Positions 11,500 to 37,912 of a stretch of 64,000 nt of DNA are shown in pieces. The translations under genes and the position numbers were made by a program. The stretch comes from Candidatus Woesebacteria bacterium (lineage in GTDB: Bacteria > Patescibacteriota > Microgenomatia > UBA8517): contig DMZH01000002.1 of the NCBI GenBank assembly GCA_003484955.1, positions 145,700 through 209,699 on the forward strand, in the 5' to 3' direction. How positions within the stretch are numbered: position 1 is the stretch's first letter; every line of letters begins with the position of its first letter. Below the pieces are notes generated by a model, which was given only the letters and a program-made list of their open reading frames with translations, was not told where the DNA came from and did no database searches.

Positions 11500-11573
11500 G
11501 GTCGCGTAGCTCAGTTGGTTAGAGCGTTGCATTCACATTGCAAAGGTCCCTGGTTCGAGTCCAGGCGCGACCA
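11500..11573 (+). tRNA. tRNA-Val (anticodon CAC)
   Basis: Manual cloverleaf: acceptor GGTCGCG/CGCGACC, D-arm GCTC-AGTTGGTTA-GAGC, anticodon stem TTGCA/TGCAA with loop TTCACAT, T-arm CCTGG-TTCGAGT-CCAGG, discriminator A. CCA is not encoded. Confidence 0.85.
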
Positions 11574-11574
11574 C

Positions 11575-14006: not shown

Positions 14007-14049
14007 CGAATTAGTAAATAGTATGGCGTGTCTATGGTAAACTTAATTT

Positions 14050-14781: not shown

Positions 14782-14879
14782 AAGTACTTTTTTGACATAA
14801 ATAGTGTGATTGGGGTAAGGGAGCAGCCAACAACTTATAGATCTCCGTAATTATATTTTTTGAAGATTATATATTGGCA

Positions 14880-15347: not shown

Positions 15348-15355
15348 ATTTTATA

Positions 15356-16492: not shown

Positions 16493-16688
16493 TCACTCAA
16501 TAATAATATCATTCATAATGTAGTCAAGTTTATGGTTTCCGTTAATATATATAAAATCCAGACTTCCGAGAGAAAAATCTTTAATTTCTCAATGGTCATT
16601 TAATACCATAAAATCGATCAATAGTCTATCCAAAAGTGTTGTAAAGTGCCGATTTGTTTGTCAAGTTATAAATTGATAAACTTCATGT

Positions 16689-19694: not shown

Positions 19695-19726
19695 TATAAT
19701 ACAGCCGAGATACGCCTGGTAAATAT

Positions 19727-22560: not shown

Positions 22561-23723
22561 ATAGTTTATTTTCGCTGCAAAGCGTATTTCTTTTTTTGTT
22601 TTTGGCCCTTTTTCCTTTCGGACAAATTATCAGGTTAAGTTTTAATATAGGCAGTTTAAATATACCTCTTCAGCCTATCGACGTTGTGGTTGGATTAGGG
22701 GCGCTTTATTCAATTTTATTTGAAAAAGAAAAACCAAAAGTTTACAAATACCTTAAATATTTTTTGGTAGCTGCGGGTTTCTCATTCATTTTGTCGGTAT
22801 TCATTTTTAAGTACGAAGTTCTTTATGGCCTATTTTATCTGGTCCGTATTGTCGCTTATACATTCTTTTTAAATTATGTTTGGAATTTTGCTAAAAAAAG
22901 CTCTACCAACGGCCATTTACTTTCAAGCAGTCTTTTGACGATTTCGGTTATCTCGGCAGTTTTTGGTTGGATTCAACTTTTTGTTTTTCCGGATATTAAG
23001 CCATTTTTTGTTTACGGTTGGGATATGCACTTGTTCCGCCTGGTGGGCACTTTCCTGGATCCCACATTTTTGGGCCTAATTATAGTTTTCGGATTGTTGC
23101 TATCGATCAATCGATTCATTGATAGTAGAGAAAAAAAGTATTTATTAATTACAGTATTCCTTTTGGTGTCTCTGGCATTTACCTATTCAAGAGCCAGCTA
23201 TCTGGCATTTTTGGGGGGTATCTTTGTCATCGCTTTTACGGAAAAGAAGTTTAGAAAAATGATGGTTTTGGCGATTGCCCTTTTGGTTTTTGCTTTACTC
23301 TTGCCGACGGCAAGAAACCACAGCATAGAGCTGACACGTTCATTTAGTATTATTGCCAGGTTGGACAATTATAAGGAGACAGTTGAGGTGTTTAAAAAAT
23401 TCCCCGTATTTGGAGTCGGGTTTAATAATCTTTGTATAGCCAGAAATAAATATATCGGAATGGAGTCTTTTACCTCTCATGCATGTTCGGGGTCCGACTC
23501 AAGTTTGCTTTTGATTCTTGCAACAACCGGCACAATAGGCCTGATGGTATTCGCGGGAAGCATCCTTGGAGTATTCAAATCTCTAACCGAAAATCGTGAA
23601 GCACAAACTGTAATTGCGGTATCTATGGCACTGTTTATTCATAGTCTGTTTTCCAATTCCTTGTTTTTCCCTTGGGTAATGGGGTATGTTGTAATTCTTC
23701 TTGCGGTCAGCGTTACGAAGTAA
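22521..23723 (+). CDS. O-antigen ligase / polymerase-like membrane protein (Wzy_C-like)
   Basis: Polytopic membrane protein with a periplasmic loop TYSRASYLAFLGG typical of the O-antigen ligase family. Confidence 0.5.
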   Translation: MGKTMGITKKIKLDSLFSLQSVFLFLFLALFPFGQIIRLSFNIGSLNIPLQPIDVVVGLGALYSILFEKEKPKVYKYLKYFLVAAGFSFILSVFIFKYEVLYGLFYLVRIVAYTFFLNYVWNFAKKSSTNGHLLSSSLLTISVISAVFGWIQLFVFPDIKPFFVYGWDMHLFRLVGTFLDPTFLGLIIVFGLLLSINRFIDSREKKYLLITVFLLVSLAFTYSRASYLAFLGGIFVIAFTEKKFRKMMVLAIALLVFALLLPTARNHSIELTRSFSIIARLDNYKETVEVFKKFPVFGVGFNNLCIARNKYIGMESFTSHACSGSDSSLLLILATTGTIGLMVFAGSILGVFKSLTENREAQTVIAVSMALFIHSLFSNSLFFPWVMGYVVILLAVSVTK

Positions 23724-24444
23724 AGTTGAGGCTTATATTTTTTTCAGTAGTATTTCCTGCTTGATCGGTTGACTTTACATTAAAGGTATTCGAGCCTTCA
23801 TTTAGGGTCGTAGTATATTGAAAAATTCCCGAATCGTCAACTGAAATAATTCTGTCATTAATTGTAACTTTGGCGTCAGTTTCGGTCTTTCCTGTGATTG
23901 TAATTTGTCTTTGATTGGATCCAAAATAGCTGGAACCGTCTGAGGGTGAAGTTATTTCCAAATCAGGTGTTTTCTTGTCAAAAGTTATTTGATGGTCATC
24001 TGATTTTTGGCTTTGGTTTCCCGATTGATCGGTGGCGGTTGCCGCAAAAGTATTTATTCCATCCTGCAAGGTTACGCCAAACGAAAATTGTCCATCGTTG
24101 TCAGCCAAGACCTCTTGAGGACTTCCATTAAAAGTAAGTTTTACTGAGGCTCCCGATTCCGTATTACCTGTCAATGTCAGGGTTTGTTGGTTAGTGAATT
24201 CCGGAAAATATTTAAATTTAGGGGGTGGGGGCGGTGTAAAATCGGAGTTGCTGATTTTATTGTTATTACCTCTAAGACTGGAGACAAGTGAGGCAAGTCT
24301 GCCAAGAGCCGGTATTCCGATAAAATAAAGTATCGCAATGGCGGCAATTGTCAGCAATATATAAAAAGTAGCGCTTCTTGTGTTTTTTCTCTCCTCGGAA
24401 TTTATAAACCTTCTTGTAAACTTTTTCATTTTATTTTTGAGCAT
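23713..24444 (-). CDS. Membrane-anchored surface protein with two bacterial Ig-like (Big) domains
   Basis: N-terminal TM anchor, a PPPPP linker, and repeated TLTGNTESGASVKLTFNG...DQSGNQS / ITITGKTETDAKVTIND...DQAGNTT modules. The start codon lies inside the left 187-bp inverted repeat. Confidence 0.5.
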   Translation of the reverse strand: MLKNKMKKFTRRFINSEERKNTRSATFYILLTIAAIAILYFIGIPALGRLASLVSSLRGNNNKISNSDFTPPPPPKFKYFPEFTNQQTLTLTGNTESGASVKLTFNGSPQEVLADNDGQFSFGVTLQDGINTFAATATDQSGNQSQKSDDHQITFDKKTPDLEITSPSDGSSYFGSNQRQITITGKTETDAKVTINDRIISVDDSGIFQYTTTLNEGSNTFNVKSTDQAGNTTEKNISLNFTS

Positions 24445-24625
24445 GTTTATAATTTAGCTCGAACTCATTTTACAACAAAATACTAACAATTACATTTGCG
24501 TCAAGAAAAGGGGTTAAAGGGGAAATGAATTGACGCGAATGTCGTGTTGTCGCTCAGTCCCGCTTCGCGGGACTTCGCTAACTCTGTTCTCTTGCTCGCT
24601 CCTTTCAGTCGCTCGCAATACGCCA
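24439..24625. repeat. Left copy of a perfect 187-bp inverted repeat (IR187-L)
   Basis: Identical over all 187 nt to the reverse complement of 34539-34725. Contains the hairpin AGTCCCGC-TTCG-GCGGGACT. Confidence 0.9.
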
Positions 24626-25137
24626 AATGGTAAAGGGGTTATTTGTACAACCTTTGGTTGCTCAACATTTTCTCCGTTGCAAAAGTTTTCTGTAATCCGA
24701 GTATTTGCCCACCCACCCTAGAAAGGAGTTGGCGCTGCCCCCTCTGCACTCGCTAGGGCCCCCTATGGGCGGCCTTGCCGATGTTTTACTTTTGTTTATC
24801 TAAGTGTTCAGTATCTTCCTCGCCTCGTGCAAAAAACATTTGCCCCTTCGGGGTTGCACTCGGCTTTTCTCAAACACTTTTAAGTAGCGTTGCTCGTTCC
24901 GGGGGGCGTTCCTTTTTTTCCGCCCCCGCGCTTTTATTTTTTCCCTTTTCGCGCGTGGTCGGCGGAAACCTGCTTCGCAGGATAGCGCCAATGCAGGGAA
25001 CAGAAAACCAATAGGCCAAAATGGTGGAAATTGGCCGATTCTAGCTTCAAATTGGACAAAATCTAAAACAAAGAAGCTTCCACAGTTTTACTTCACAAAC
25101 ACTTCGCTTTAGTACAAGAGCGAAGTATACTAACTGT
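24626..25137 (+). ncRNA. Candidate structured noncoding RNA (GC-rich, several UUCG-tetraloop hairpins); identity unknown
   Basis: This ~510-nt stretch has no credible ORF and is far more GC-rich than the rest of the window. Hairpins CCCC-TTCG-GGGG (24844-24854), CCTGC-TTCG-GCAGG (24969-24981) and GGGGGGCG...CGCCCCC are present. The IR hairpin CCCGC-TTCG-GCGGG lies upstream. Confidence 0.25.
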
Positions 25138-25776
25138 ATGGCAGACGACACACCACAAGACACTACAACAACTCAAGACACACCTGCAGATCAACCAGTA
25201 GTTCAACCCGAACCACCGAAAGTCGAGGAGACTCCTGACGAAATTCCACCAACTGAAACTTCAGCAGAAGAAAAACCAACACCAACAGAAGAACCCAAAC
25301 CAGAAAATCCTCCCGAAGTTCCTGAAATTCCCCGAACTCCCGAAACATCCAAGGAGGAAACTAAAACAGAAGAGAAACCAACAGAAACAAAAGCAGAAGA
25401 ACTAAAAACAGACGAGAAACCCAAAGACGTGTCCGCCGAAGTCTCGACGAAGGTGGAAGAAGTTAAACCAGAAGTACCCGCTCCCGAATCTCCCAAACAA
25501 CCCGAAAAACCTATACCCGCCGAAACTTCAGTGAAGGAGGGCCAACCAAACCTTGACGACTTAAGAGACAAAGCAAACAAAGAGAGACAAGACAGAAAAC
25601 AGGAACATTTATCAGAAGTTGAGAAGTTAGCTAAATCAAAACAAATTAACAATGATGATGTCCGTGAGCTTTTGCACGTTTCCCAAAGTACAGCAACAAA
25701 TTATCTGGAAGAATTGACCAAACAGGGGAAAATCAAGAAGTCTGGGAAGGCAAAAGCTACTTCGTACTCTTCTTAA
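25138..25776 (+). CDS. Acidic low-complexity (P/E/T/K-rich) protein with a C-terminal winged-HTH DNA-binding domain
   Basis: About 150 aa of PEPK/TPTEE-type disordered repeats, then DVRELLHVSQSTATNYLEELTKQGKIKKSG (wHTH). Confidence 0.45.
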   Translation: MADDTPQDTTTTQDTPADQPVVQPEPPKVEETPDEIPPTETSAEEKPTPTEEPKPENPPEVPEIPRTPETSKEETKTEEKPTETKAEELKTDEKPKDVSAEVSTKVEEVKPEVPAPESPKQPEKPIPAETSVKEGQPNLDDLRDKANKERQDRKQEHLSEVEKLAKSKQINNDDVRELLHVSQSTATNYLEELTKQGKIKKSGKAKATSYSS

Positions 25777-26053
25777 CTTTAGTTGTGATTAGTTTAAATC
25801 CGCCTTTACCAAATTTAATAACTTGGCCTATTTTACTTATTGTGGAGGAGCTAACAGGAATTAACTTTTCAATTTCCTCATATGTTTTATCAGCTAGGAT
25901 ATAGTTTGCAATCTTGATTCGTTGGGCAAAATCCAAAGTTTCCTCATCTGTAAATAGATCTTGAATAAATAAGGCCAAATTATTTTTAGTCTTAACTTTG
26001 TAAAACGAATCAACCAGAAGTTCTTGGTCTTTACCCAGTGCCACTTTTGCCAT
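25757..26053 (-). CDS. TrpR-like YerC/YecD family protein
   Basis: 98 aa with the Trp-repressor-like fold signature LFIQDLFTDEETLDFAQRIKIANYILADKTYEEIEKLIPVSSSTISKI. Confidence 0.5.
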   Translation of the reverse strand: MAKVALGKDQELLVDSFYKVKTKNNLALFIQDLFTDEETLDFAQRIKIANYILADKTYEEIEKLIPVSSSTISKIGQVIKFGKGGFKLITTKVKKSTK

Positions 26054-26109
26054 AATTAACTATATCACGTTAATCCAATCAATTAAATAATTTCTGTCAG
26101 TCATATTTC

Positions 26110-26138
26110 TTGACAAAGTAATTCTTTTCATTTAATAT
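26110..26138 (+). promoter_or_regulatory. Sigma70-like promoter candidate (TTGACA-17-TAATAT)
   Basis: TTGACA at 26110-26115, a 17-nt spacer, and TAATAT at 26133-26138. Confidence 0.35.
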
Positions 26139-26261
26139 GAATTGACCGTTTGATACGGCGCACTTTTAAACAGATATTTATTTTCTTATTTGGAAATCGA
26201 CAGTTGTTTAATTACAACTAAGTACAGGGTAACTTGTACATTAAGGTATTTTTTTAATACC

Positions 26262-26286
26262 GCAGATGAAAATCTGCCGCTTTTTT
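26262..26286 (+). terminator. Rho-independent terminator candidate (GCAGAT-GAAA-ATCTGC then CCGC TTTTTT)
   Basis: A 6-bp stem with a GNRA loop followed by a T6 tract, ~125 nt downstream of the promoter candidate. Confidence 0.35.
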
Positions 26287-26482
26287 CCGGGACATGCACA
26301 GCAAGATGTATATGCATTAAGTTATGTGTCATTGCCAGGATCACAGGCATAATGGGGCTAAGATATGACAGTAGAAATATCGTGGCACGTCAGAAATATT
26401 TAAGGAGGCTCAAGATCTTTCTTTTAGGATTTCCTTTTTAAGACGGGCACTTGGCATTTTTGCCAGGTTAGAAAGGATAAAT

Positions 26483-26680
26483 ATGCTGAAAAAGTACAAC
26501 CAACTTATTAGTCTTATTGATGAGTTGGCCAAAGACGAAGATCTGAAGCCAGGTAAAAAGGATATACTTAAGAGGGCATTGAAGGAACTGTTCCACGCTC
26601 TTGATACTAAAAATATCAAAGGTGTGAGAAAAGCAATCGATCAGCTCTCAAAAGAACTGCTAATTGTTTACCATCCTTAA
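26483..26680 (+). CDS. Small helical hypothetical protein (65 aa), first gene of the RT/R-M cluster
   Basis: ORF with a good RBS-like context (AGGATAAATATG); no motif recognised. Confidence 0.3.
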   Translation: MLKKYNQLISLIDELAKDEDLKPGKKDILKRALKELFHALDTKNIKGVRKAIDQLSKELLIVYHP

Positions 26681-26713
26681 TTATTTCCATAAGGACCCGT
26701 TTGACGGATTTTT

Positions 26714-27043
26714 ATGGAAGTACCTATTATGAACTACGGAAAAGCACTCAAAATTGCACGCTCCGCGCGAAACATTTCTCAGAAAGATTTAAGTGATGCT
26801 ATTAGTTTGGATCCAAGCTATATTTCGCTTATAGAAAAAGGTAAAAGAATACCGACTATCGAAACTCTTGAGAAAATTGTAAAAAGTCTCAATATCCCAA
26901 TACATCTGTTTTTTCTATTGGCATCTGGCAAGAATCAAATGAAGAAAATGCCGTCTAGTAAAAAGGCGGGGGTAGCAGAGTTGTTGTTGGATCTTCTTCT
27001 TTCCACTGAAAAAAATGAGCACTCTCCAAAAAACAAAAATTAA
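26714..27043 (+). CDS. XRE-family helix-turn-helix transcriptional regulator
   Basis: ISQKDLSDAISLDPSYISLIEKGKRIPTIETLEKIVKSL matches the Cro/C1 HTH. The 3' end overlaps the RT start by 29 nt. Confidence 0.7.
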   Translation: MEVPIMNYGKALKIARSARNISQKDLSDAISLDPSYISLIEKGKRIPTIETLEKIVKSLNIPIHLFFLLASGKNQMKKMPSSKKAGVAELLLDLLLSTEKNEHSPKNKN

Positions 27044-27992
27044 ATCAGTTGCTGAACTTTCGCAAACTCTAAAGGTTGGTGTTAAGGAATTCGTCAAAAC
27101 CGCTAAAAATGCAAATTTGTTTTATAGACCATTTGATCTTAGCAAAAAAGGATCTGAAAAATGGAGACACATAGATAATCCAACAGGCAAACTCAAAATA
27201 ATCCAAAAGGCTATAAACAAACAAATTTTGCGCGACTTAATGTTTCAACTTCCACCTAATATCATGGGTGGTATCGAGAACAAATCTATTCTTGAAAATG
27301 CCAAAGTACACGTTGGACAAGAAATGGTTGTCACGATAGATATCAAAAATTGCTTTCCTAAAACAAAAAATGAGGTCATCTTTACCATCTGGAAAAATTT
27401 ATTGGGATTCGAGCCGAATAGTGCAAGGTTATTAACCCAATTAACTACAACAAAGGGACACCTACCTCAAGGTTCCCCTGCGAGTCCATCTTTATCAAAT
27501 CTTGCCCTACTTCCGATTTCAAAAGAAATTTTGAATTATTCAAAAAAACATCATTTGAACTTTACTATATATGTTGACGATATTACATTATCCGGAAAGA
27601 AAAGTTCAGCATTAGATTCAATTAGCCCAGTTGTTAAAATCATTCAAAAATATGGCTATGCAATAAGAAATAAGAAAGTTAAAAAAATGCCTTCATATAA
27701 AACTCAAACGACAACAGGAATCCAACTAAACTCTGAAATTTCCATTGGAAAGCAGAAGATTGATGAAATTAGGAAGGAAATAATTAATCTTGCCAAACTA
27801 CAAAAGCCGTATATCACTAAAAAATCAATTTTTAGCAAAATTGATTATGTAAAAAAAATTTCGCCAGAAAAAGGACAAAAACTACTAGAGTTTGCCAATA
27901 TGATATTGGAGGAAGATATTGATTATATTGCTGTTGATCCAGAAAAAGACGAAAAAAGAGATTGCAATGGAAAGGCCTGCCTAGCTAAATAG
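27015..27992 (+). CDS. Reverse transcriptase, retron-type (no maturase or endonuclease domains)
   Basis: RT motif 1/2 TIDIKNCFPKT, motif 4 LPQGSPASPSLSNLAL (retron-like LPQGAPTSPxLSNL), motif 5 YVDDITLSG, and a downstream TTGIQLN that matches the retron VTG region; 325 aa. Confidence 0.7.
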   Translation: MSTLQKTKIKSVAELSQTLKVGVKEFVKTAKNANLFYRPFDLSKKGSEKWRHIDNPTGKLKIIQKAINKQILRDLMFQLPPNIMGGIENKSILENAKVHVGQEMVVTIDIKNCFPKTKNEVIFTIWKNLLGFEPNSARLLTQLTTTKGHLPQGSPASPSLSNLALLPISKEILNYSKKHHLNFTIYVDDITLSGKKSSALDSISPVVKIIQKYGYAIRNKKVKKMPSYKTQTTTGIQLNSEISIGKQKIDEIRKEIINLAKLQKPYITKKSIFSKIDYVKKISPEKGQKLLEFANMILEEDIDYIAVDPEKDEKRDCNGKACLAK

Positions 27993-28052
27993 GTCAATTA
28001 CTTCGCTTTAGTACATTCGTACAAGAGCAAAAAGTGCTAAAATACACACATA

Positions 28053-30320
28053 ATGGCTAATTCATTAAATCTTTCTGACAACGAAAAGCGAGATATTATT
28101 AAATTTTTACAAGAAGGCAAATCTCTTCCTGAAAAATATAGATTTCTTCTTTTTAATGACGATCGTGAAGTTGAGCTTTTGTGGAATGGTAAAACAAATG
28201 AAGTTACTAATGTAGTATTGCCCTTTCAGGTAATAGAGCAAATTGACGAGCCAAGAAGTGATGCCAAATTCGGAATGCAAAACACACTTTTTGATACTAC
28301 TGGTCGACAAATTACAGGGTGGACAAATAAACTTATTTGGGGCGACAACAAATTAATACTTTCTTCACTCAAAAATGGTCCACTTCGAAAAGGAATTGAA
28401 GCACAAGGCGGTATAAAGTTGATTTACATTGACCCGCCCTTTGACGTTGGTGCTGACTTTTCAATGAATATAGAAGTTGGAGAAGATAGTTTTACCAAAA
28501 AACCCTCTGTAATTGAGGAAATTGCATATAGGGATACTTGGGGCAAAGGTGCAGATAGTTTTATTGCAATGATTTATCAAAGATTAAAATTGATGCACGA
28601 TTTATTGGCTAACGATGGAAGTATCTATGTCCATTGCGATTGGAGATTAAATAGCTATATGCGTTTAATCCTTGATGAAATTTTCGGTAAAGAAAATTAT
28701 AGAAATGAAATTGTTTGGAAACGCACATATTCTACAAAAGCACAGAGTATTAGCTTTGGTAAAACTCATGAACTTATTTTGTTTTACGCAAAAAGTGAAA
28801 GTACTAAATTAAAACAACTTTATCAAAAGCCAGATGAAGGGTATGTAGATAAATATTTTAATAAAACGGACGAAAATGGCAAAAAGTATCAATCTTTAAG
28901 CTTAACCCAACAAGGACAAGGACCAGCTAGATATTTTGGAGACAAACTAATAGAACCGACTAAGGGAATGCATTGGATTTGGTCGCAGGATAGAATCACT
29001 AAAGCTTTTCAAGAAGGTAGAATAGTTTTTACTAAAAATGATTTTCCAAGACTTAAAAAATACCTTGAGGATTGGAATGAACAAGGTCGTCCAATTGATG
29101 GTCTTTGGGTGGATGATGAAGTCGGGCCTCTAAACTCGTGGCACAGTGAATCACTCGATTATCCAACTCAAAAACCTGAATCGATGCTCACTCGCATAAT
29201 TCAATCCAGCAGTAATGAGGGAGATTTGGTTGCAGATTTTTTCTGTGGATCGGGAACAACACTTGCAGTTGCTGAAAAATTGAATAGAAAGTGGATAGGG
29301 TCTGATCTGGGAAAATTTGGAATACATACAACAAGAAAAAGAATGATAGGAGTGCAAAGAGAACTTAAGAAAGATGGCAAAGATTTTAGAGCTTTTGAAA
29401 TATTAAATGTTGGTAAGTATGAAAGAGATAGTTATCTAACAACAAATGATGATTTGAGAGCTGAAGAAAGAATAAAGCAAGCAGAAAGGAAAGAAAAAGA
29501 ATTCGTAAAACTTATTGTTACTGCCTATAAAGCAGAACTCATTGAATCATTTGTAAATATTGTAGGTAAAAAACGAGATAGACTAATTGCGGTTGGTCCA
29601 ATAAATACTCCTGTATCCTCTAAGTTTATTCAACAAGTAGTAAATGAATGCAAAGATAAAAATTTAACTAAAGTAGATATTTTAGGTTTTGACTATGAAA
29701 TGGGTATGAACATTGAGGAATATAGAAGTCAAAGTATTGATATTGTTTTTAAGGTAATTCCGAGAGAAGTTTTTGATAAACAAGCTGTAGAAAAAGGACA
29801 AGTTAAGTTTTACGATGTCGCATATATTGACGCAAAACCAGTTGTAAAGGGTGGAGCTAAAAGCAAGGAGTTGTCCATCGAGCTTACTGACTTTTCAGTT
29901 TTTTATAACCAAGATGCGAGTGATGATGTTTCTGAAAGTTTAAGACCTGGTGGAACAAAAGTTGTTGTTGAAAATGGACAAGTTGTTAAATTAACAAAAG
30001 ATAAAGAGTCTGATGTTGTATCAAAAGAAGTTTTAACTAAAAAATGGAGTGACTGGATTGATTATTGGGCAGTTGATTATAATTTTTCTGATAGAAAAGA
30101 AGTAATAATTGACCAAGACGATAAAGGTGAATATGTTGAGGCTTGGACAGGGGACTATATTTTTGATAACGAATGGCAAAGTTTTAGAACAAATAAAAAT
30201 AGAAATCTTGAATTAACTTCAACTCCAAGAGAAATGATAAAAGGAAATTATAAAGTTGCTGTTAAAGTTGTTGATATTTTTGGCAATGATACAACTAAAA
30301 TTATTGAGGTAAATATTTAA
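28053..30320 (+). CDS. mod: Type III restriction-modification Mod subunit (beta-class N6-adenine/N4-cytosine DNA methyltransferase)
   Basis: Motif IV IYIDPPF precedes motif I DFFCGSGTTLAVAEKLNRKWIGSDL (order IV-TRD-I); 755 aa. Confidence 0.75.
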   Translation: MANSLNLSDNEKRDIIKFLQEGKSLPEKYRFLLFNDDREVELLWNGKTNEVTNVVLPFQVIEQIDEPRSDAKFGMQNTLFDTTGRQITGWTNKLIWGDNKLILSSLKNGPLRKGIEAQGGIKLIYIDPPFDVGADFSMNIEVGEDSFTKKPSVIEEIAYRDTWGKGADSFIAMIYQRLKLMHDLLANDGSIYVHCDWRLNSYMRLILDEIFGKENYRNEIVWKRTYSTKAQSISFGKTHELILFYAKSESTKLKQLYQKPDEGYVDKYFNKTDENGKKYQSLSLTQQGQGPARYFGDKLIEPTKGMHWIWSQDRITKAFQEGRIVFTKNDFPRLKKYLEDWNEQGRPIDGLWVDDEVGPLNSWHSESLDYPTQKPESMLTRIIQSSSNEGDLVADFFCGSGTTLAVAEKLNRKWIGSDLGKFGIHTTRKRMIGVQRELKKDGKDFRAFEILNVGKYERDSYLTTNDDLRAEERIKQAERKEKEFVKLIVTAYKAELIESFVNIVGKKRDRLIAVGPINTPVSSKFIQQVVNECKDKNLTKVDILGFDYEMGMNIEEYRSQSIDIVFKVIPREVFDKQAVEKGQVKFYDVAYIDAKPVVKGGAKSKELSIELTDFSVFYNQDASDDVSESLRPGGTKVVVENGQVVKLTKDKESDVVSKEVLTKKWSDWIDYWAVDYNFSDRKEVIIDQDDKGEYVEAWTGDYIFDNEWQSFRTNKNRNLELTSTPREMIKGNYKVAVKVVDIFGNDTTKIIEVNI

Positions 30321-33011
30321 ATGGCATTACATAAAGATTTTCCAAAAGATCCGTACGCAATACTTGACCCTTCGATCAGGTGGTTTCCTGCTGACGAAGT
30401 CTTAAGAGAAAAAGGATATGATAAATTACTTCCACCACTCGTTGCTGATCTCCGAAAAAAAGTAAAAGAATGGAGAGATAAAAATTATGAAGGTGCGAGT
30501 GAAACTTCACAATCACTTTTGAATTGGTGGTTTAAGGAAGATCATGTTGTATACGATCAACATGGTGTTTCTTCAAATTTTAGATATTACTTTGCGCAAA
30601 GAGAAGCTTTAGAAACTGTCATATGGCTTTATGAAGTTGCCAAGGTAAAAGATAAATACGATCTAATTAGATACAACTCAACTCAAGTATTAAGTGCGGG
30701 TATGTTTACTGAGGATTGGTTAAGATTTGTAATCAAAATGGCAACAGGAGCAGGAAAGACAAAAGTTATGAGTTTAATTATTGCTTGGGCATATTTTCAT
30801 AGAAAATATGAGTTAGATTCTAATCTTTCAAAAAACTTTCTATTAATTACTCCAAATGTAATAGTATTTGAAAGAATCAAAAATGACTTTGAAGGTCTAA
30901 AGATATTTTTTACAGATCCGGTTTTACCTGATAATGGATATAATGGTCAAAATTGGCAAGATGATTTTCAATTAACATTACACTTACAAGATCAGTTAAG
31001 TACCATTTCAGATACCGGAAATATATTTTTAACTAACATACACAGAGTTTTTGAAGGAAATATTAAAGAAGCGAGTTTAGATGACGAAGATGTTTCTTCG
31101 TACTTCTTAGGTCGTAAACCAGTTACAAAAACTAACGATTCGACAGTTGACCTTGGTATGATTGTTCGAGATATTGATGAACTGATTGTTATAAATGATG
31201 AAGCCCACCATATACACGATGAAAATATGGTTTGGTATAAATCTATACTTGATATTGACAACAAGTTAAAACAAAAAGGATCAGGTCTCGCACTTCAATT
31301 AGATCTAACAGCCACTCCAAAAAAGAATGATGGCTCGATATTCGTGCAGGTAATATCTGACTATCCTTTAGTCGAAGCAATTCATCAAAGAATTGTCAAA
31401 AATCCAGTAATACCTGATGGGGCAAGTCAGGGGAAATTAAAGGAAAACCAAAGTATTTTGTTTAGTGAAAAATATAGAGACTATATTAATCTTGGAGTTG
31501 AAGAATGGAGGAAAACATATAAAACCTTAGAACCGATGGGTAAAAAATCAATTTTATTTATAATGACGGATGATACAAAAAACTGTGATGAAGTAGCTGA
31601 ATATATTAAAACAAGTTTTTCTGATCTTCGCGATGCAGTTTTAACAATCCACACTAATAAAAGCGGAGAGATTTCAGAAAGCGTTGGTGGTAAAAACGAA
31701 GAAGATTTAATACTTCTCCGAAAACAAGCTAATGAAATTGATAGTTGGGAAAGTCCTTTCAAAGTAATAGTTTCTGTAATGATGCTTAAAGAAGGCTGGG
31801 ATGTAAAAAACGTAACTACTATTGTAGGTCTTAGACCTTACGCAGCGGATTCAAAGATTCTTCCAGAACAAACGCTTGGTAGAGGTTTAAGGAGAATGTT
31901 TTTTGGCAGAGATGATGTTGAAGAATATGTAAGTGTAATTGGTACCACCGCTTTTATGGAATTTGTTGAATCAATTCAAGGGGAGGGTGTAATGCTTGAG
32001 CGAAAAGCTATGGGTGCAGGATCAAAGCCAATTACACCTGCAGTTATTGAAGTTGATAAGGAAAATCCAAATAAAAATATTGAAAAACTTGATATAGAAA
32101 TACCTGTAATGACTCCAAGAATCCAAAGGGAATATAAAAATCTTGCCAATTTAGATGTTTCTCAATTTGGAAATAAGAAAGTAAGTGTAAAGACTTTCTC
32201 AGAACAAGAAAAAAGAGAAATTATTTTCAAAGATGTTGTTGACGAAAAAATACATCATACAACTGTACTAACTGGCGATATTGAACCAGATTATAGAAGT
32301 GTAATTGGTTTTTTTGCCCAAGCTGTAATGAGAGAACTTAGGCTTTTTGGTTGTTATGACATTTTGTTTGAAAAAGTAAAGGAATTTATCGAGAAATATT
32401 TATTTGATATTACAGTTGATTTATCAGATCTCAATATATTAAGAAACTTGTCAGAAGTAGAATATATAAAATTTATTAAAGACACATTCAAAGATGCCAT
32501 TAATAACTTAACAATTCAAGATACTGGAGACACTGAAATCAAAAATTATATTAAAATTAGTGAAGCAAGACCATTTGTTGTTAATGATAAATCATATTTA
32601 ATTCCAAAAAAATCAGTATTTAATAAAATTGTAGGAGATAGTAATTTTGAACTTACTTTTGCTGATTTTCTTGAAAACTGTGAAGATGTAATTTCATTTT
32701 CCAAAAATTATCAAAACAAAGAAGCGAGTGCATTAAGAATTGAATATAAAAATTCAGAAGGGTTAATCGCAAACTATTATCCAGACTTTTTCGCAAAATT
32801 GGATGATAAAACTGTTTACATAATTGAAACAAAAGGCCGAGAGGAAGATGATGATAAACTAAAATTTGAAAGATTACAAAAATGGTGCATCGATGTAAAC
32901 AGTCGTCAAACAAAAGTGGAATATAAATCTCTATATATTAAGCAAGAAGAATGGGAAAATAATAAATTAAAAAATTTTGACGAGGTTGTTAGGTTATTTA
33001 CATCTATTTAA
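30321..33011 (+). CDS. res: Type III restriction enzyme Res subunit (SF2 DEAH helicase plus C-terminal PD-(D/E)xK endonuclease)
   Basis: Walker A ATGAGKTKVM, motif II VINDEAHH, helicase C region VSVMMLKEGWDVKNV, and a C-terminal YYPDF...VYIIETKG nuclease motif. The start abuts the mod stop. Confidence 0.75.
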   Translation: MALHKDFPKDPYAILDPSIRWFPADEVLREKGYDKLLPPLVADLRKKVKEWRDKNYEGASETSQSLLNWWFKEDHVVYDQHGVSSNFRYYFAQREALETVIWLYEVAKVKDKYDLIRYNSTQVLSAGMFTEDWLRFVIKMATGAGKTKVMSLIIAWAYFHRKYELDSNLSKNFLLITPNVIVFERIKNDFEGLKIFFTDPVLPDNGYNGQNWQDDFQLTLHLQDQLSTISDTGNIFLTNIHRVFEGNIKEASLDDEDVSSYFLGRKPVTKTNDSTVDLGMIVRDIDELIVINDEAHHIHDENMVWYKSILDIDNKLKQKGSGLALQLDLTATPKKNDGSIFVQVISDYPLVEAIHQRIVKNPVIPDGASQGKLKENQSILFSEKYRDYINLGVEEWRKTYKTLEPMGKKSILFIMTDDTKNCDEVAEYIKTSFSDLRDAVLTIHTNKSGEISESVGGKNEEDLILLRKQANEIDSWESPFKVIVSVMMLKEGWDVKNVTTIVGLRPYAADSKILPEQTLGRGLRRMFFGRDDVEEYVSVIGTTAFMEFVESIQGEGVMLERKAMGAGSKPITPAVIEVDKENPNKNIEKLDIEIPVMTPRIQREYKNLANLDVSQFGNKKVSVKTFSEQEKREIIFKDVVDEKIHHTTVLTGDIEPDYRSVIGFFAQAVMRELRLFGCYDILFEKVKEFIEKYLFDITVDLSDLNILRNLSEVEYIKFIKDTFKDAINNLTIQDTGDTEIKNYIKISEARPFVVNDKSYLIPKKSVFNKIVGDSNFELTFADFLENCEDVISFSKNYQNKEASALRIEYKNSEGLIANYYPDFFAKLDDKTVYIIETKGREEDDDKLKFERLQKWCIDVNSRQTKVEYKSLYIKQEEWENNKLKNFDEVVRLFTSI

Positions 33012-33698
33012 ATGTATAAACTTTCACCATCAGATTTTGCATATTTATACGAGGAATGTAAGCTTTGCTATTACTTAAAGATTAAACATGGAATATACCA
33101 ACCAAGCATGCCAATGCCTGGAGTTTTTTCTGCAATAAATACTCGACTTCAAGGAAATTTGGTTGGTAAAAATCTTCACACGCTTTCAGAAAAGTTGCCA
33201 GATGGGATCGTTGAAAATCAAGAAGGTTGGGTTGAATCAAAACCAGTTCCTGATACGGAAGTATTTATAAAAGGCAAATACGATTTATTAGTTAAACTTC
33301 CTGATGACACGCACCTATTGGTTGATCTAAAAATTAGCACACCGGGGGATGATAAAATTGAAAAATATAAAACTCAACTTAATGCCTACAAATTTGCTCT
33401 TGAAAATCCAGCTAACGGAAACCCTATAAAATTAACAAGGCTTGGACTTTTGATTTTTTATCCAGACCAAGTTAGTTTTGAGAAAGGAAGTGCTACCCTA
33501 ACTTTTCCTCCAAGCTGGTTAGAGGTTCCTGCTGATCAAACAGGATTTTTAGCTTTTGCAAAAAGAATAGATAAATTACTTTCGGGTCCAACACCAGAGG
33601 AGGGAAAAGAATGTAAATGGTGCAAATATAGACATTTGGGAGATACCCTTTCTCATACTGATACTGGAAGTGTGAAGGATGACACAATTCCATTTTAA
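33012..33698 (+). CDS. Cas4/RecB-like PD-(D/E)xK nuclease with four Cys (probable Fe-S cluster), not CRISPR-linked
   Basis: N-terminal CKLC, core GKYDLLV ... LLVDLKIS (D...D-x-K), a QLNAY (QxxxY) motif, and a C-terminal CKWC. The start abuts the res stop. Confidence 0.55.
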   Translation: MYKLSPSDFAYLYEECKLCYYLKIKHGIYQPSMPMPGVFSAINTRLQGNLVGKNLHTLSEKLPDGIVENQEGWVESKPVPDTEVFIKGKYDLLVKLPDDTHLLVDLKISTPGDDKIEKYKTQLNAYKFALENPANGNPIKLTRLGLLIFYPDQVSFEKGSATLTFPPSWLEVPADQTGFLAFAKRIDKLLSGPTPEEGKECKWCKYRHLGDTLSHTDTGSVKDDTIPF

Positions 33699-33946
33699 GG
33701 AGTTAACTTTGGTGTTGTACAACAGTGAAGTATATTGACAATTTGCCACCAAATGGTAACAATGGTATTATACTTCTCCAATGACTAAAACTAACAAATC
33801 TCAACCAACTAAAAAAGCAGTTTATTTTATTGCTACAAAATATAAAAATAGGCAGACTCGTGTCAGTCTATATACAAAAGACTGGAAAAGTGTCGCTAAA
33901 AGCGATGCTACGGATAAACTCGGATATTCATTAGAATAACTTCTCC

Positions 33947-34459
33947 ATGGGTAAGAAAAATAAATCTCCGTTAACCCCAATGGATTTTCAGTTGGGTTCT
34001 GGAGGCGTCATTCCCTCCACCCAGGAAGCTTTTGGACCAAACAAAGAATTCTCTGGAAATATACGAAAAGAAGAAAGCGGCGCGACTGCAGAATTTAAAA
34101 AAGCTCTTGGTACCCAGATAGATGTCGAAATTGGTGAGTTGAAACAGTTCCCTTCGGATAAGGAGTTTTTTGTGTTTATAATTCAATACTTTGTTTCAGA
34201 CAAAGAATATAAGGCCAGAGACCTGGACAATATGGCTAAAACCATGCTGGACTTATTGAAAGGAAGATTTTATAAAGACGATGGACAAGTTAAGACACTC
34301 TTAGTTGGTAAGAAGATGGAAAAACGTGTTCCTAAAAATTTTATATATTTTGCATTAAAAGAAATGAAGGATGACAGAGATATTGATGCCCTGAAGATTT
34401 CCGGGCTAGAAAGATCAGTCACTCTTTTCAATGAACAAGTGGCAAAAGGACTTTGCTGA
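33947..34459 (+). CDS. rusA: RusA-like Holliday junction resolvase (phage-type)
   Basis: ARDLDNMAKTMLDLLKGRFYKDDGQVKTLLVGKK matches the RusA motif DLDNxxKxxLDxLxGxxxxDDxQV...K. Confidence 0.55.
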   Translation: MGKKNKSPLTPMDFQLGSGGVIPSTQEAFGPNKEFSGNIRKEESGATAEFKKALGTQIDVEIGELKQFPSDKEFFVFIIQYFVSDKEYKARDLDNMAKTMLDLLKGRFYKDDGQVKTLLVGKKMEKRVPKNFIYFALKEMKDDRDIDALKISGLERSVTLFNEQVAKGLC

Positions 34460-34538
34460 TACTAAAAATTGGCTTCAATTGTATAAAATAGTTATTCGAT
34501 TTTTTAATTGAGTATTTTATATTATCAATAGGCACGAG

Positions 34539-34725
34539 TGGCGTATTGCGAGCGACTGAAAGGAGCGAGCAAGAGAACAGAGTTAGCGAAGTCCCGCGAA
34601 GCGGGACTGAGCGACAACACGACATTCGCGTCAATTCATTTCCCCTTTAACCCCTTTTCTTGACGCAAATGTAATTGTTAGTATTTTGTTGTAAAATGAG
34701 TTCGAGCTAAATTATAAACATGCTC
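34539..34725. repeat. Right copy of the perfect 187-bp inverted repeat (IR187-R)
   Basis: The reverse complement of 24439-24625, with 187/187 identity. Confidence 0.9.
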
Positions 34726-34773
34726 CCAAGATAAATTTTTTGAAGAGGCGCGAAGCGCCGACCAAGCGAATTG
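34725..34773. repeat. 49-bp inverted repeat, copy a (IR49-a), immediately abutting IR187-R and upstream of the recombinase gene
   Basis: CCCAAGATAAATTTTTTGAAGAGGCGCGAAGCGCCGACCAAGCGAATTG is the reverse complement of 36275-36324 apart from a 1-nt indel. Confidence 0.85.
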
Positions 34774-34838
34774 ACACTCCACGGACTGATATTATTTGAG
34801 CTATTGCTTCGGGATAATTGCAAAGATATAAATAAGTA

Positions 34839-36386
34839 ATGGTAAATAAATTCTTCCTCTACGCCAGAAAGTCCACAGATGTAGAAGATATGCAGGTTCT
34901 TTCAATTGAAGCTCAAATTAATGAACTCCGTGAGTTAGCCAAGAAAGAAGGTTTAGAGATAGTAGATGAGCTAATTGAAAAGAAATCTGCAAAAAATCCC
35001 GGAAGGGTAATTTTTAATTCCATGCTTGATAGAATTGAAAAAGAAGAAGCTAATGGAATTATATCTTGGCACCCAGATAGACTTGCCAGGAATAGTGTGG
35101 ACGGAGGAAGAATTATTTACCTCTTAGATAGAAATAAATTATCTGCCCTCAAATTTAATACCTTTTGGTTTGAATCTACTCCTCAAGGAAAGTTCATGCT
35201 TAGTATTGCATTTTCTCAAAGTAAATATTATGTAGATTCCTTGTCAGAAAACACCAAAAGAGGACTTCGCCAAAAAGCTAAAAATGGATATTGCCCCAGT
35301 GTTGCCCCAATTGGTTATTTAAATGATTCAAGAAACAAAACTATTGTTTTAAATAAAAAAGTTGGTCCAATTATCAAAGAAACTTTTGAACATTATAGTA
35401 ACGGCAATATCCTAATGCGTGAAGTAAGTAGCTTTTTGGCTGAACGTGGAATACTTCTTCCTAGTGGTAGACCCTTCGGTCTTTCAAGAATTAGAAAAAT
35501 CTTAACAAATCCATATTATTATGGTCATTTTATATATGCGGGAGAAGTATATGAGGGCAGACACGACCCAATAATTTCAAAGCTACTTTTTGACAAAGTC
35601 CAAGAAATTATTAATAGAAAAAATAAACAGTGGAGTAAGGCTAGAGTAGAAAGAGTTCACAAGCCTTACGTTGGACTTTTGACGTGTGGTGAGTGCGGAA
35701 TGGGCATTACAGCTGATTTTAAAGATAGACATTATAAAAACGGCAATTGTAGCCATTTTAATTATTACAGGTGTACTAAAAAGGATAAAACTACAAAATG
35801 TCTACAATCCCATATCCGCGAGGAGGACTTGGATAGTCAGCTCACCACACTTCTCAAAAAGTACACTTTGAAAAATGCTTGGGCAATAAAAATGAATAAG
35901 AAACTAGATATTGAATCAAGAGATATTGCCCAATCATCCCTTTCTGTCATTTCTCTCAAGAGAAAAGAAATTGATAATTTGAATTCTAAACTCCAGCTTC
36001 TTTTAGACAGTTATTTAGATCAAATAACTGATAAAGAAATGTACAAAAAAAAGAAGCTTGAGTTATTCTCTCAAAAGAAAACTTTTGAGGAACAAATTAT
36101 CAATTTGCAAAACCAGAAAGGGAATTGGATCGAACCTATGAGAAAGTGGATATCCGAAGCAAGTGAAGTGGATCAAATAATATCAACAAACAATAAAGAC
36201 GATAAAAAGGTTCTCGCTTCAAAAATCTTCGGCTCGAACCTCTTTTTGGAAGACAAAAAAGTCCGTGGAGTAGGCCAATTCGCTTGGTCGGCGCTTCGCG
36301 CCTCTTCAAAAAATTTATCTTGGGAGCCGAGAGTGGGGATCGAACCCACGACCTGCGGTTTACGATACCGCCGCTCTGCCAACTGA
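34839..36386 (+). CDS. Large serine recombinase (resolvase catalytic domain, recombinase domain and zinc ribbon)
   Basis: N-terminal FLYARKSTDVEDMQ...Q with the catalytic Ser in YxRxST, the resolvase core GIISWHPDRLARN, a recombinase domain, and a Zn ribbon CGECGMG...C...YYRC. The 3' end reads ~60 nt into tRNA-Thr (...GIEPTT...). Confidence 0.75.
   Translation: MVNKFFLYARKSTDVEDMQVLSIEAQINELRELAKKEGLEIVDELIEKKSAKNPGRVIFNSMLDRIEKEEANGIISWHPDRLARNSVDGGRIIYLLDRNKLSALKFNTFWFESTPQGKFMLSIAFSQSKYYVDSLSENTKRGLRQKAKNGYCPSVAPIGYLNDSRNKTIVLNKKVGPIIKETFEHYSNGNILMREVSSFLAERGILLPSGRPFGLSRIRKILTNPYYYGHFIYAGEVYEGRHDPIISKLLFDKVQEIINRKNKQWSKARVERVHKPYVGLLTCGECGMGITADFKDRHYKNGNCSHFNYYRCTKKDKTTKCLQSHIREEDLDSQLTTLLKKYTLKNAWAIKMNKKLDIESRDIAQSSLSVISLKRKEIDNLNSKLQLLLDSYLDQITDKEMYKKKKLELFSQKKTFEEQIINLQNQKGNWIEPMRKWISEASEVDQIISTNNKDDKKVLASKIFGSNLFLEDKKVRGVGQFAWSALRASSKNLSWEPRVGIEPTTCGLRYRRSAN
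36275..36324. repeat. 50-bp inverted repeat, copy b (IR49-b), inside the recombinase 3' coding region and ending 1 nt from the tRNA-Thr 3' end
   Basis: Reverse complement of 34725-34773 with one extra nucleotide. Contains the hairpin GGCGC-TTCG-(C)GCGCC. Confidence 0.85.
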
Positions 36387-36397
36387 GCTACCTCGGC
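36325..36397 (-). tRNA. tRNA-Thr (anticodon CGT)
   Basis: Manual cloverleaf on the minus strand: acceptor GCCGAGG/TCTCGGC (G7-U66 wobble), D-arm GCTC-AGTTGGCA-GAGC, anticodon stem GCGGT/ACCGC with loop ATCGTAA, T-arm GTGGG-TTCGATC-CCCAC, discriminator U. Confidence 0.8.
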
Positions 36398-36429
36398 TTA
36401 TGTGCTCAATTATAGCATTTCTGGGCGTG

Positions 36430-36500
36430 AGCGGGTGAGCGGAGTCGAACCGCCCTTTCCACCTTGGGAAGGTGGCGTTGAGCCGATCAACTACACCCGC
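36430..36500 (-). tRNA. tRNA-Gly (anticodon CCC)
   Basis: Manual cloverleaf: acceptor GCGGGTG/CACCCGC, D-arm GTTG-ATCGGCT-CAAC, anticodon stem CCACC/GGTGG with loop TTCCCAA, T-arm GGCGG-TTCGACT-CCGCT, discriminator U. Confidence 0.75.
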
Positions 36501-37134: not shown

Positions 37135-37225
37135 ATTTATTCACCTTCTTTCCGAAGGGCAGAGTTAGGCTGAATGTAGAGGAAGAAACGAATGAAGTCA
37201 ATAGGAAAATAATAATATTATTGGG

Positions 37226-37489
37226 CGGGATCGACGAGATTCGGACTCGCAACCTCTTCCGTGCACCTTTTTGTTTCCAAAAAGTTTGGACTATCTCATC
37301 ATCCTAAAAATAGGAGCCAGGTATATAGTCTCTACACATTTACTACGTTCACATAAACTGAACGCAGCTTTAGCTCGGGATTGCCATCTTAAAGGTTTCC
37401 CCGAATTAGCCTGGTTTTACATTCCAGATCACTCTGGAACGCTGCCACAATCGACAGGGAAGCGCTCTAGCCAGTTGAGCTACGACCCC
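37226..37489 (-). tRNA. Split tRNA gene, probably tRNA-Asp(GTC), with a ~190-nt intervening sequence (putative intron) in the anticodon loop
   Basis: The 5' half (37458-37489) is GGGGTCG-TA-GCTC-AACTGGCTA-GAGC-G-CTTCC, followed by loop nts CTGT.... The 3' half (37226-37260) is GGAAG-AGGTT-GCGAG-TCCGAAT-CTCGT-CGATCCC-G. The halves pair into a canonical cloverleaf only if 37261-37457 is removed. The predicted mature loop is CTGTCAC, and the intervening sequence ends in G. Confidence 0.5.
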
Positions 37490-37501
37490 AATACACGTAT
37501 T

Positions 37502-37912
37502 TTACCAGTAATAGTCTTTAGCCGCAATTACACCTTTTTCTTGGTTATTTTTTGATTTTTCTATTCTTATACTTAGTTTCTTTTTACCAACAAAAATAGC
37601 TTTTGGGAAAAAGCATAATTTATCAATTTTTGGAATATACACGATCAGGGCGTCAACCTCATTTTTCTTGTATGTATAAGTATTTTTTCTTCTGTCAACA
37701 TACTCAAGTTTTACAACAACAGATCCATGCGTATTTGAAGGTTTTCCGTTGGCATATTTTACTTGTAAGCGGGAGAGACGAAGACCATCATCAATAATTA
37801 AATCATATCGGGCATCAAACAAAGGTCTGCTGGGCAAATATCCCAATTCAAATGCTCTTAACTCGGCCTTACTTACGGCCAATTGTCCTTTTGTGTTGGT
37901 GGTTGTCTTCAT
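37502..37912 (-). CDS. Hypothetical protein, possible PD-(D/E)xK (Hjc-like) nuclease fold
   Basis: Weak E...YDLIID...LQVKY pattern (E-D-QxK); 136 aa. Confidence 0.25.
   Translation of the reverse strand: MKTTTNTKGQLAVSKAELRAFELGYLPSRPLFDARYDLIIDDGLRLSRLQVKYANGKPSNTHGSVVVKLEYVDRRKNTYTYKKNEVDALIVYIPKIDKLCFFPKAIFVGKKKLSIRIEKSKNNQEKGVIAAKDYYW

Follow-up and report, generated by a model that had tools for sequence, protein, structure and literature searches.

Nested inverted repeats in a Woesebacteria tRNA-gene island: a split serine integrase gene and an inverted second copy of its attachment site

What are two perfect copies of a 187-bp sequence, facing each other across 9.9 kb of genes, doing in the chromosome of a Candidatus Woesebacteria bacterium, and do they mark the ends of a mobile unit? 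The question is raised by a 64-kb stretch of contig DMZH01000002.1, called the window here, in which positions 24439-24625 and the reverse complement of 34539-34725 are identical at 187/187 positions. We find that the copies are parts of an integrative island at a tRNA-Thr(CGT) gene, one at its left end and one in its interior. The repeat duplicates the 3' end of a serine integrase gene, which the insertion has split.

Boundaries of the island and origin of the 187-bp repeat

Exact string comparison bears out the perfect repeat that a preliminary description of the window had reported. The match stops sharply at both ends (outer flank T versus G, inner flank A versus C), and a chance origin of the pair is excluded. 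Comparing the window with itself, as that description had suggested, recovers the pair, scored by the repeat search as 198 nucleotides (nt) at 97%. The comparison also returns one other strong repeat, which had been missed: an abutting, perfect inverted pair at 34722-34773 and 36276-36327 (52/52), with its arms 1,502 nt apart. The left 52-bp arm and the outer end of the right 187-bp copy have 4 nt (GCTC) in common, and the right 52-bp arm terminates within the 3' end of tRNA-Thr(CGT). The arms of the long repeat are designated X and X' and those of the short repeat D and D'. Also overlooked before were a large serine recombinase (LSR) gene that starts between D and D', the tRNA gene as target, and the coding of the integrase C terminus by the repeat. 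The features on which the argument depends are as follows, with P and B denoting the arms of the element site (attP) and of the host site (attB).

24439..24625, plus strand: X, the 187-bp arm on the left, which forms the island's left end (attL); P' arm of attP
34539..34725, minus strand: X', the 187-bp arm on the right, contained in the inverted internal attP that is still intact
34722..34773, plus strand: D, the 52-bp arm on the left, duplicating the P arm; GC hairpin GGCGCGAAGCGCC
36276..36327, plus strand: D', the 52-bp arm on the right, which forms the island's right end (attR); P arm of attP
24439..24442: crossover core GAGC at attL
36324..36327: crossover core GAGC at attR
34539..34773, minus strand: intact internal attP region (D'-core-X on the minus strand)
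34839..36386, plus strand: LSR gene, integrated form, 515 aa (Resolvase, Recombinase, Zn_ribbon_recom)
24442..24486, plus strand: detached last 14 codons and stop of the integrase gene (HVYNLARTHFTTKY-stop), in frame only with D' joined to X
36325..36398, minus strand: tRNA-Thr(CGT), B' arm of attB (ARAGORN, Rfam)
23713..24429, minus strand: host gene for an Ig-like/Big-domain secreted protein, B side of attB (Pfam Glucodextran_B, Big_13, Big_6)

The left junction reads host...TTTTT-GAGC-X, the internal junction D'-GAGC-X on the minus strand, and the right junction D'-GAGC-tRNA. From these junctions attB was predicted beforehand as ...CTCTCGGCTC joined to AAAAATAAAATG, that is, tRNA-Thr directly followed by the Ig-like gene. 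Metagenome contigs were then scanned for a tRNA-Thr 3' end without D next to it, and in all 19 loci recovered (L016-L034) an Ig-like homologue begins 3-12 nt past tRNA-Thr. One of these contigs, L029, whose identity to the window flanks is 92-97%, reads ...GGCTC joined to AAAAATAAAATGAAAAAG, matching the advance prediction exactly. The empty site places the insert at 24443-36327. The locus is an integrative island of 11,885 bp that sits precisely at the tRNA-Thr(CGT) 3' end, between the tRNA and the Ig-like gene. Empty-site junctions, which the preliminary description had proposed to look for, thus exist, while the insert they define is not the 9.9-kb cassette between the long repeats.

The sites attB, attL, attR, and internal attP have only the 4-nt core GAGC in common, which fits serine recombination, and the island termini X and D' are unrelated sequences. 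When the right end of the island (D', 36276-36327) is joined to its left end (from 24443), a 235-bp attP region results that matches the reverse complement of 34539-34773 at 235/235 positions. The island therefore holds two inverted attP copies, one split between attL and attR and one intact and internal, the latter lying directly upstream of the integrase gene. The 187-bp repeat is the duplicated 3' end of the integrase gene plus the P' arm and does not represent transposon termini. The preliminary description rightly assigned the repeat to mobile DNA and placed a site of recombinational crossover in it; contrary to what had been proposed, the repeat does not bound the mobile unit.

The same geometry explains a detail at the left end. 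The left copy had been said to overlap the start codon of the Ig-like gene, and an ATG (24442-24444) does lie within the repeat. This ATG is the reverse complement of a His codon in the integrase tail; it is supplied by the element and absent at the empty site, and the true start is most likely the ATG at 24427-24429. As the Ig-like gene ancestrally begins 3-12 nt after tRNA-Thr, a tRNA-mRNA co-transcript is implied. Insertion moves the Ig-like gene 11.9 kb away from the tRNA-Thr transcription unit.

The repeat arrangement is not an assembly artifact. The exact LSR protein is found on 11 contigs and the exact Ig-like protein on 18, from several independent Rifle-aquifer assemblies (k127, k141, ANAN16 scaffolds, and two GenBank metagenome-assembled genomes, MAGs), and all 15 retrieved loci are colinear with the window wherever they overlap it. 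Three short contigs (L006-L008) stop at 36324 + k - 1, indicating an assembly-graph branch at the attR core.

The integrase gene, its detached tail, and the family layout

The LSR matches the Pfam families Resolvase (1.1e-23), Recombinase (8.8e-15), and Zn_ribbon_recom (2.4e-9), and its closest solved relative is the A118 integrase (4KIS, E = 8e-9). A coiled coil is present in the AlphaFold 2 (AF2) model of the relative P0055 (helices 349-396 and 402-429), so that the resolvase, recombinase, zinc ribbon, and coiled-coil parts of a large serine integrase are all accounted for. Judged by these domains, the element is a large serine integrase island, and attP x attB recombination is predicted.

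The core falls at integrase codon 496/497, and D' codes for integrase residues QFAWSALRASSKNLSWE. Read across D'-core-X, the integrase ends ...SWE-HVYNLARTHFTTKY-stop (510 aa). In the integrated form the native tail HVYNLARTHFTTKY has been moved to attL and the reading frame ends ...SWE-PRVGIEPTTCGLRYRRSAN-stop, the last 19 codons of the 515-aa open reading frame (ORF) being antisense to tRNA-Thr. Because attP lies inside the LSR gene, integration swaps a conserved 14-aa tail for antisense-tRNA codons.

About 40 relatives conserve this tail as (L/F/I)Y(N/D)x(A/V/I)RT(Y/H)F with a further 3-5 residues. Where its codons differ from one element to another, the changes are synonymous or conservative (CGA/AGA/CGC, TAC/TAT, ACC/ACT). 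After integration the tail is instead an antisense-tRNA peptide that varies in sequence, is 4 to >70 residues long, and is read in either of two frames; the native tail appears in only 3-4 of the 127 family proteins retrieved. The 90% cluster of the window integrase contains antisense-tRNA tails only, two of them from other tRNA sequences, and no native-tail or differently joined version of the protein was found in that cluster.

How general is this layout? One search returned 7,660 integrase relatives at E < 1e-20, and the survey covered 78 loci from species-representative genomes, mostly Patescibacteria. At about 63 of the 78, an inverted repeat of 50-219 bp, usually 95-100% identical, surrounds the LSR gene, and its downstream arm reaches 2-5 nt into an antisense tRNA gene from the 3' side; the targets include at least 28 different tRNA genes. 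A second inverted repeat, assessable only where enough upstream DNA existed, is present at 22 loci (154-392 bp), with its right arm overlapping the first repeat by 2-10 nt. These 22 full loci, with elements of 3.0-11.2 kb, share the order B/X-cargo-X'/D-integrase-D'/tRNA, and the start of X is conserved family-wide. The layout is characteristic of the family throughout Patescibacteria. A scan of IMG/VR with the integrase profile gave nine weak or partial matches, none with the two-repeat architecture.

In the smallest elements, the integrase is accompanied by just one accessory gene of an ordinary kind. Judged from their sequences, examples encode alanine-racemase-like, alpha/beta-hydrolase-like, and pilin-like proteins. 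No replication gene or origin was recognized in these minimal elements (3.0-4.2 kb).

The integrase segment occurs in two arrangements. In state A the 3' end of the integrase gene runs into the tRNA, as it does in the window and in at least 50 of the 78 loci. In state B, tRNA(+)/D-integrase-D'/X, the gene is intact and has its native tail; four genome loci are of this type (L040, L042, L083, and L088), and the metagenome locus L118 is a clean case, with tRNA-Val, D, the integrase, and the native tail in X. A further locus, L119, reads X'/D-LSR-D'/X, the configuration expected of an excised circle. The conservation of the tail even in state A elements implies that selection acts on tail-joined forms and that state A is not an evolutionary dead end.

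Recent mobility and cargo turnover are indicated by the closest relatives. An LSR of the same 90% cluster lies at tRNA-Gly(TCC) in L117, and another occupies the same tRNA-Thr/Ig-like site in L115, a different Woesebacteria genome, where a methyltransferase and a GmrSD/HNH gene take the place of the retron and Type III restriction-modification (R-M) genes of the window. The element of L115 is 89-94% identical to that of the window, whereas the flanking host genes are 69% identical. In the window, and likewise in L115, the two X arms match each other at 100%; between the two elements their identity is 92% (BLAST) to 94% (global alignment). In all compared pairs the arms are more similar within an element than between elements: the arms evolve in concert.

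The arms themselves have recurring features. In the window, a T-loop-like TCGAAC lies 16 nt from the core in X versus 12 nt in the tRNA, and a T-loop-like motif (TCGAA and variants) is 4 nt farther from the crossover in X at 28 of 32 loci, the window included; the shift is established for the right half-sites (P' and B'). Large serine integrases likewise have the B-type half-site motif 4 bp closer to the crossover than the P-type, and in the SPbeta integrase a 4-bp shift of DNA-binding domain 2 (DBD2) separates the half-sites (PMC11722253). The 4-nt offset suggests that the enzyme resembles a canonical directional serine integrase with a T-arm-like P' arm.

When D is read from the tRNA inward, nearly all relatives show a strong GC hairpin, in most cases with a U-rich tract after it. 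Stem sequences vary between elements while pairing is maintained, and the opposite strand of the hairpin codes for the 'WSALRA' motif of the integrase. By its form the D hairpin resembles a terminator behind the tRNA. X combines the tail codons, GC hairpins, and a weak outward promoter-like site, and could thereby supply an outward promoter for the displaced host gene. The two copies of this site are located as follows.

24477..24504, minus strand: promoter-like site in X, directed outward toward the host gene (TTGACG-16-TATTTT, 9/12 consensus matches)
34660-34687, plus strand: the same promoter-like site in X', directed toward the integrase gene (consensus scan)

An Rfam scan of the window gave no match in X or D, only the tRNAs and a group I intron. 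X also contains a hairpin (TTGCGTCAA...TTGACGC) with loop AAAAGGGGTTAAAGGGGAAA, at 24490-24545 and 34619-34674. The AAAAGGGGTTAAAGGGGAAA loop motif is also found in X of L115, L110, L039, L050, L118, and L119, recurring in several elements whose integrases are only 50-67% identical, and could be a protein-binding site or an RNA element.

Possible roles of the second attachment site

We hold the structural account (island, attachment sites, split gene, duplicated attP, and family trait) with high confidence, and the explanation as a whole is quite probably the best available for this locus. Why, then, does the element keep a second attP? In the working we propose, the excised form would be a circle in which two inverted 235-bp attP repeats part the integrase segment from the cargo segment. 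Integration via the attP inside the gene would give state A, with the conserved tail replaced by antisense-tRNA codons. Integration via the other attP, or a RecA-type inversion across the D arms, would give state B, in which the integrase gene is intact and co-oriented with the tRNA. The spare inverted attP would keep a complete 3' end on hand to restore an integrase gene that splits itself, gene conversion would hold the arms identical, and D would provide a terminator-like hairpin behind the tRNA. This purpose for the second copy is put forward tentatively, as a proposal that may well be wrong.

An extension of the proposal, which we place on the unlikely side, is that this widespread family of serine integrases in the candidate phyla radiation (CPR) controls its own directionality and activity without a recombination directionality factor (RDF): the crossover would rewrite the tail, and the gene-converted spare attP would re-complete the gene. 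The tail would be intact in the circle and replaced by antisense-tRNA codons once integrated. The enzyme without its tail would then either be locked in an inactive form or still be able to excise the element, so that its directionality switch would be built in, and the gene would be re-completed when the integrase segment flips or the element integrates via the other site. If true, self-splitting integrases would for the first time be on record beyond Archaea and beyond the tyrosine family, and none before would have carried its own repair copy.

Several points weigh against this reading. For the window element itself, neither an excised circle nor a flipped isomer nor a protein with the native tail came to light, and all of its contigs are in state A. 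The contigs L006-L008 pass through both D arms without a branch. The orientation of the 9.9-kb segment rests on scaffolds, being unreadable in contigs with an assembly k < 187. The bias of state A over state B (at least 50:4) is unlike the equal use of two identical attP sites. Canonical serine integrases do not recombine attP with attL or attR (PMC3783163), so that flipping driven by the integrase is not expected, and the A and B isomers may have arisen by rare accident. In the AF2 model of a native-tail relative, the predicted local distance difference test score (pLDDT) of the tail is below 50, which is uninformative on tail docking. No RDF or conserved small gene was recognized in the minimal elements, RDFs being too diverse for exclusion by sequence. 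The promoter and terminator assignments are based on consensus scans and folding only, and the X'-D leader folded as RNA does no better than shuffles (z = -1.0).

The principal alternative to a spare 3' end is that the second attP is a regulatory duplication. By occupying the intact attP, between a promoter in X' and the start codon, integrase would repress its own gene, much as transposases bind a promoter-bearing terminal repeat; arm identity would be a by-product of gene conversion, and the flipped isomers accidents without a role. The position of the intact attP directly upstream of the integrase gene in every full locus is in keeping with such an operator, as are the promoter-like site in X' aimed at the gene and the predominance of state A. 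Arm lengths vary (D 50-219 bp, X 154-392 bp) while the core-proximal part stays constant, as if constraint acted near the core only. However, an operator needs about 50 bp and not faithful tail codons and hairpins, an inward-facing terminator-like hairpin in D fits poorly between a putative promoter and its gene, and state B and circle-like forms with intact native tails exist. We regard the regulatory duplication as unlikely.

Could the 9.9-kb cargo instead be an invertible phase-variation switch for the retron and the Type III R-M genes? An invertible segment was one of the two interpretations offered in the preliminary description, and long identical inverted repeats, together with the physical exchange between arms that concerted evolution implies, speak for it. 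With identical arms, though, inversion alters no junction and no promoter-gene pairing, and a single orientation is seen in all spanning assemblies. Relatives carry arbitrary accessory genes, which makes a switch specific to this cargo unlikely, and no small serine recombinase of the invertase type is present. Phase variation of the cargo is quite improbable.

A very improbable alternative is a device like that of the yeast 2-micron circle, in which the excised circle would replicate and inversion between the repeats would amplify its copy number. The 2-micron circle is a replicating plasmid that carries Flp, a tyrosine recombinase, and its FRT sites within 599-bp inverted repeats whose identity is maintained; inversion amplifies copy number, and there is no chromosomal integration. 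The predicted island circle has the same geometry, identical inverted repeats with internal recombination sites parting a recombinase segment from a second segment. It differs in its serine enzyme and in integrating, the 2-micron element being a non-integrating plasmid. The minimal elements, moreover, lack a recognized replication initiator or origin, none of eight short family contigs was circular by terminal overlap, and serine integrases are not known to recombine attP x attP productively (PMC3783163).

The other earlier interpretation, that the 187-bp copies are the terminal inverted repeats of a cut-and-paste cassette, is scarcely credible: identical inverted ends do enclose genes of a mobile type, but the empty site gives an 11,885-bp insert ending at 36327 and not at 34725, the right copy is internal and half of the intact inverted attP, the integrase segment of the same insertion continues beyond it, and there is neither a DDE transposase nor a target-site duplication at 24438/34726. 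An insertion sequence, composite, or DDE transposon was rejected on the same observations and on the unrelated termini X and D'. An assembly artifact, by chimeric inverted duplication or repeat collapse, has a negligible probability: the deletions of 71 and 38 bp in the right copy of two GenBank contigs show that assemblers struggle there, but the same arrangement recurs in independent assemblies, several samples, and several k-mer sizes, and dozens of unrelated MAGs repeat the architecture with sequences of their own.

In these two contigs, 71 bp (34639-34709) are missing from the right copy in L001 (LBZA01000007.1) and 38 bp (34638-34675) in L005 (LBYU01000008.1), relative to the window and several re-assemblies; both deletions are probably local assembly collapse. 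The protein KKR53797.1 (508 aa) is 7 residues short in the D' region. Many family contigs (L035-L114) begin k-1 nt left of the D arm or stop inside D', and many family integrase genes are alone on contigs of 1.6-2 kb. At these islands the nested inverted repeats break short-read CPR assemblies in a systematic way, and they explain why integrase-bearing contigs in CPR metagenome assemblies so often break in the same place.

How does the proposed spare-end element compare with known systems? With phiC31, Bxb1, A118/LI, TP901-1, and SPbeta SprA it shares the Resolvase-Recombinase-Zn-ribbon-coiled-coil architecture and attP x attB recombination with a very short shared core in place of long direct repeats. 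In contrast to these large serine integrases, the island has its attP within the integrase ORF, whose tail is swapped on integration, and a second, intact, inverted attP beside the gene; the extreme 3' ends of many tRNA genes are targeted, with a T-arm-like P' arm; and the family lacks a recognizable RDF even in 3-kb elements and has CPR hosts.

Integrases that disrupt their own genes are described in a review as tyrosine recombinases exclusive to Archaea (PMC8371274; PMC7253208). Like the island, SSV-type integrases (SSV1, pTN3, pT26-2) have the recombination site in their own gene, which is partitioned at integration into a tRNA gene. These enzymes are tyrosine recombinases of archaea whose genes are split in the gene body, whereas the island has a bacterial serine enzyme whose gene loses no more than its final 14 codons and retains an inverted spare of that end, so the likeness is best regarded as analogy and not as membership.

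Inverted sites are also a feature of the Hin H-segment of Salmonella and of Mu Gin and P1 Cin, the latter two with 0.6-kb inverted repeats. Their enzymes are small serine recombinases that need an enhancer and Fis, switch a neighboring gene, and are not integrases. The island resembles these invertase switches in having the recombinase gene beside or inside a segment with inverted sites and in showing both orientations of the integrase segment among relatives. An invertible segment of the Hin/Gin/Cin or shufflon type was rejected, as the enzyme is a large serine integrase, the 9.9-kb segment has one orientation in all spanning assemblies, and the orientations of the integrase segment differ only between genomes.

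Tycheposons of Prochlorococcus are small islands at tRNA genes with variable accessory or defense cargo, some of them mobilized by LSRs, and the title and abstract of that report (bioRxiv 10.1101/2020.12.28.424599) describe neither a nested inverted attP duplication nor a split integrase; their hosts also belong to another phylum. Serine-integrase islands at tRNA genes are therefore known, while the split gene and the retained inverted attP are undescribed in the literature searched, as are the use of tRNA 3' ends as general targets through a shifted P' arm resembling the T-arm and the apparent lack of an RDF. The coverage of that search was incomplete, and the absence of a report on the family and its architecture is not proven.

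Serine integrases are the main enzymes of genome engineering, and the control of their direction is an active structural question. The family is a natural experiment on tail-dependent control of serine integrases, appearing not to need a separate directionality factor, and offers compact candidate elements of about 3 kb for integration at tRNA genes. In CPR/Patescibacteria, a group with few well-described mobile elements, the family is also a major carrier of defense and accessory genes.

Cargo and neighboring tRNA genes

The gene list of the preliminary description stands. Pfam and PADLOC recover a winged helix-turn-helix (wHTH) protein with weak support, the TrpR/YerC-like and XRE-type regulators, a reverse transcriptase (RT), the Type III R-M pair, the Cas4-like nuclease, and RusA. 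The features of this region and of the adjoining tRNA locus are as follows.

24626..34538, plus strand: cargo segment C (Pfam, PADLOC)
25138-25776, plus strand: wHTH (Pfam, weak)
25757-26053, minus strand: TrpR/YerC-like (Pfam)
26714-27043, plus strand: type VI retron HTH, XRE-type (PADLOC HTH_VI, 8.6e-22)
27015-27992, plus strand: type VI retron RT (PADLOC RT_VI, 4e-69)
28053-30320, plus strand: Type III mod, N6_N4 methyltransferase (PADLOC MTase_III, 5.9e-106)
30321-33011, plus strand: Type III res, ResIII (PADLOC REase_III, 4.8e-20)
33012-33698, plus strand: Cas4-like PD-(D/E)XK nuclease (PADLOC Cas4, 1e-8)
33947-34459, plus strand: RusA (Pfam)
36429-36500: tRNA-Gly(CCC), next to tRNA-Thr (ARAGORN, Rfam)

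On these profile matches, the cargo includes a type VI retron and a Type III R-M system, and the 11.9-kb unit as a whole is a defense island. The approximately 660 bp upstream of the retron HTH gene (26054-26713) contain small ORFs only. A type VI retron should be accompanied by an msr/msd noncoding RNA, but no Rfam match to one was found near the retron, the interval 26054-26713 not having been otherwise inspected. A diversity-generating retroelement, suggested by the RT close to an Ig-like gene, would show template and variable repeats that differ at adenines, with the variable repeat at the 3' end of a target gene; it was rejected: the repeats are identical, inverted, and at the 5' side of the gene, and the RT is that of a type VI retron with an HTH partner.

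Elsewhere in the window, a weak inverted pair at 50484-50514 and 52018-52048 (31 nt, 77%) has a spacing of 1,503 nt, near that of the D arms. The similarity is probably a coincidence, as the ORFs there are unlike recombinases by size.

In L115, about 9 kb (11560-20717) lie between tRNA-Thr and tRNA-Gly, versus 30 nt in the window. The genes of this stretch encode Peptidase_M29, HMA, DsbD-like, and CsoR-like proteins and a copper P-type ATPase. It looks like a second island, at the 3' end of tRNA-Gly, although no integrase and no inverted repeats were detected in it.

Beyond tRNA-Gly in the window, a tRNA gene on the minus strand (37222-37490) is interrupted by a group I intron (Rfam RF00028, 79 bits, 37267-37470). 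ARAGORN run with introns recovers the split tRNA there, and its anticodon loop, CTGTCAC, identifies tRNA-Asp(GTC). Intron-bearing tRNA-Asp/Asn genes have been described in Patescibacteria (PMC13011429). A PD-(D/E)XK_5 endonuclease gene (37502-37912, minus strand) lies immediately upstream of the intron-bearing tRNA and is absent from L029, which fits a mobile homing endonuclease.

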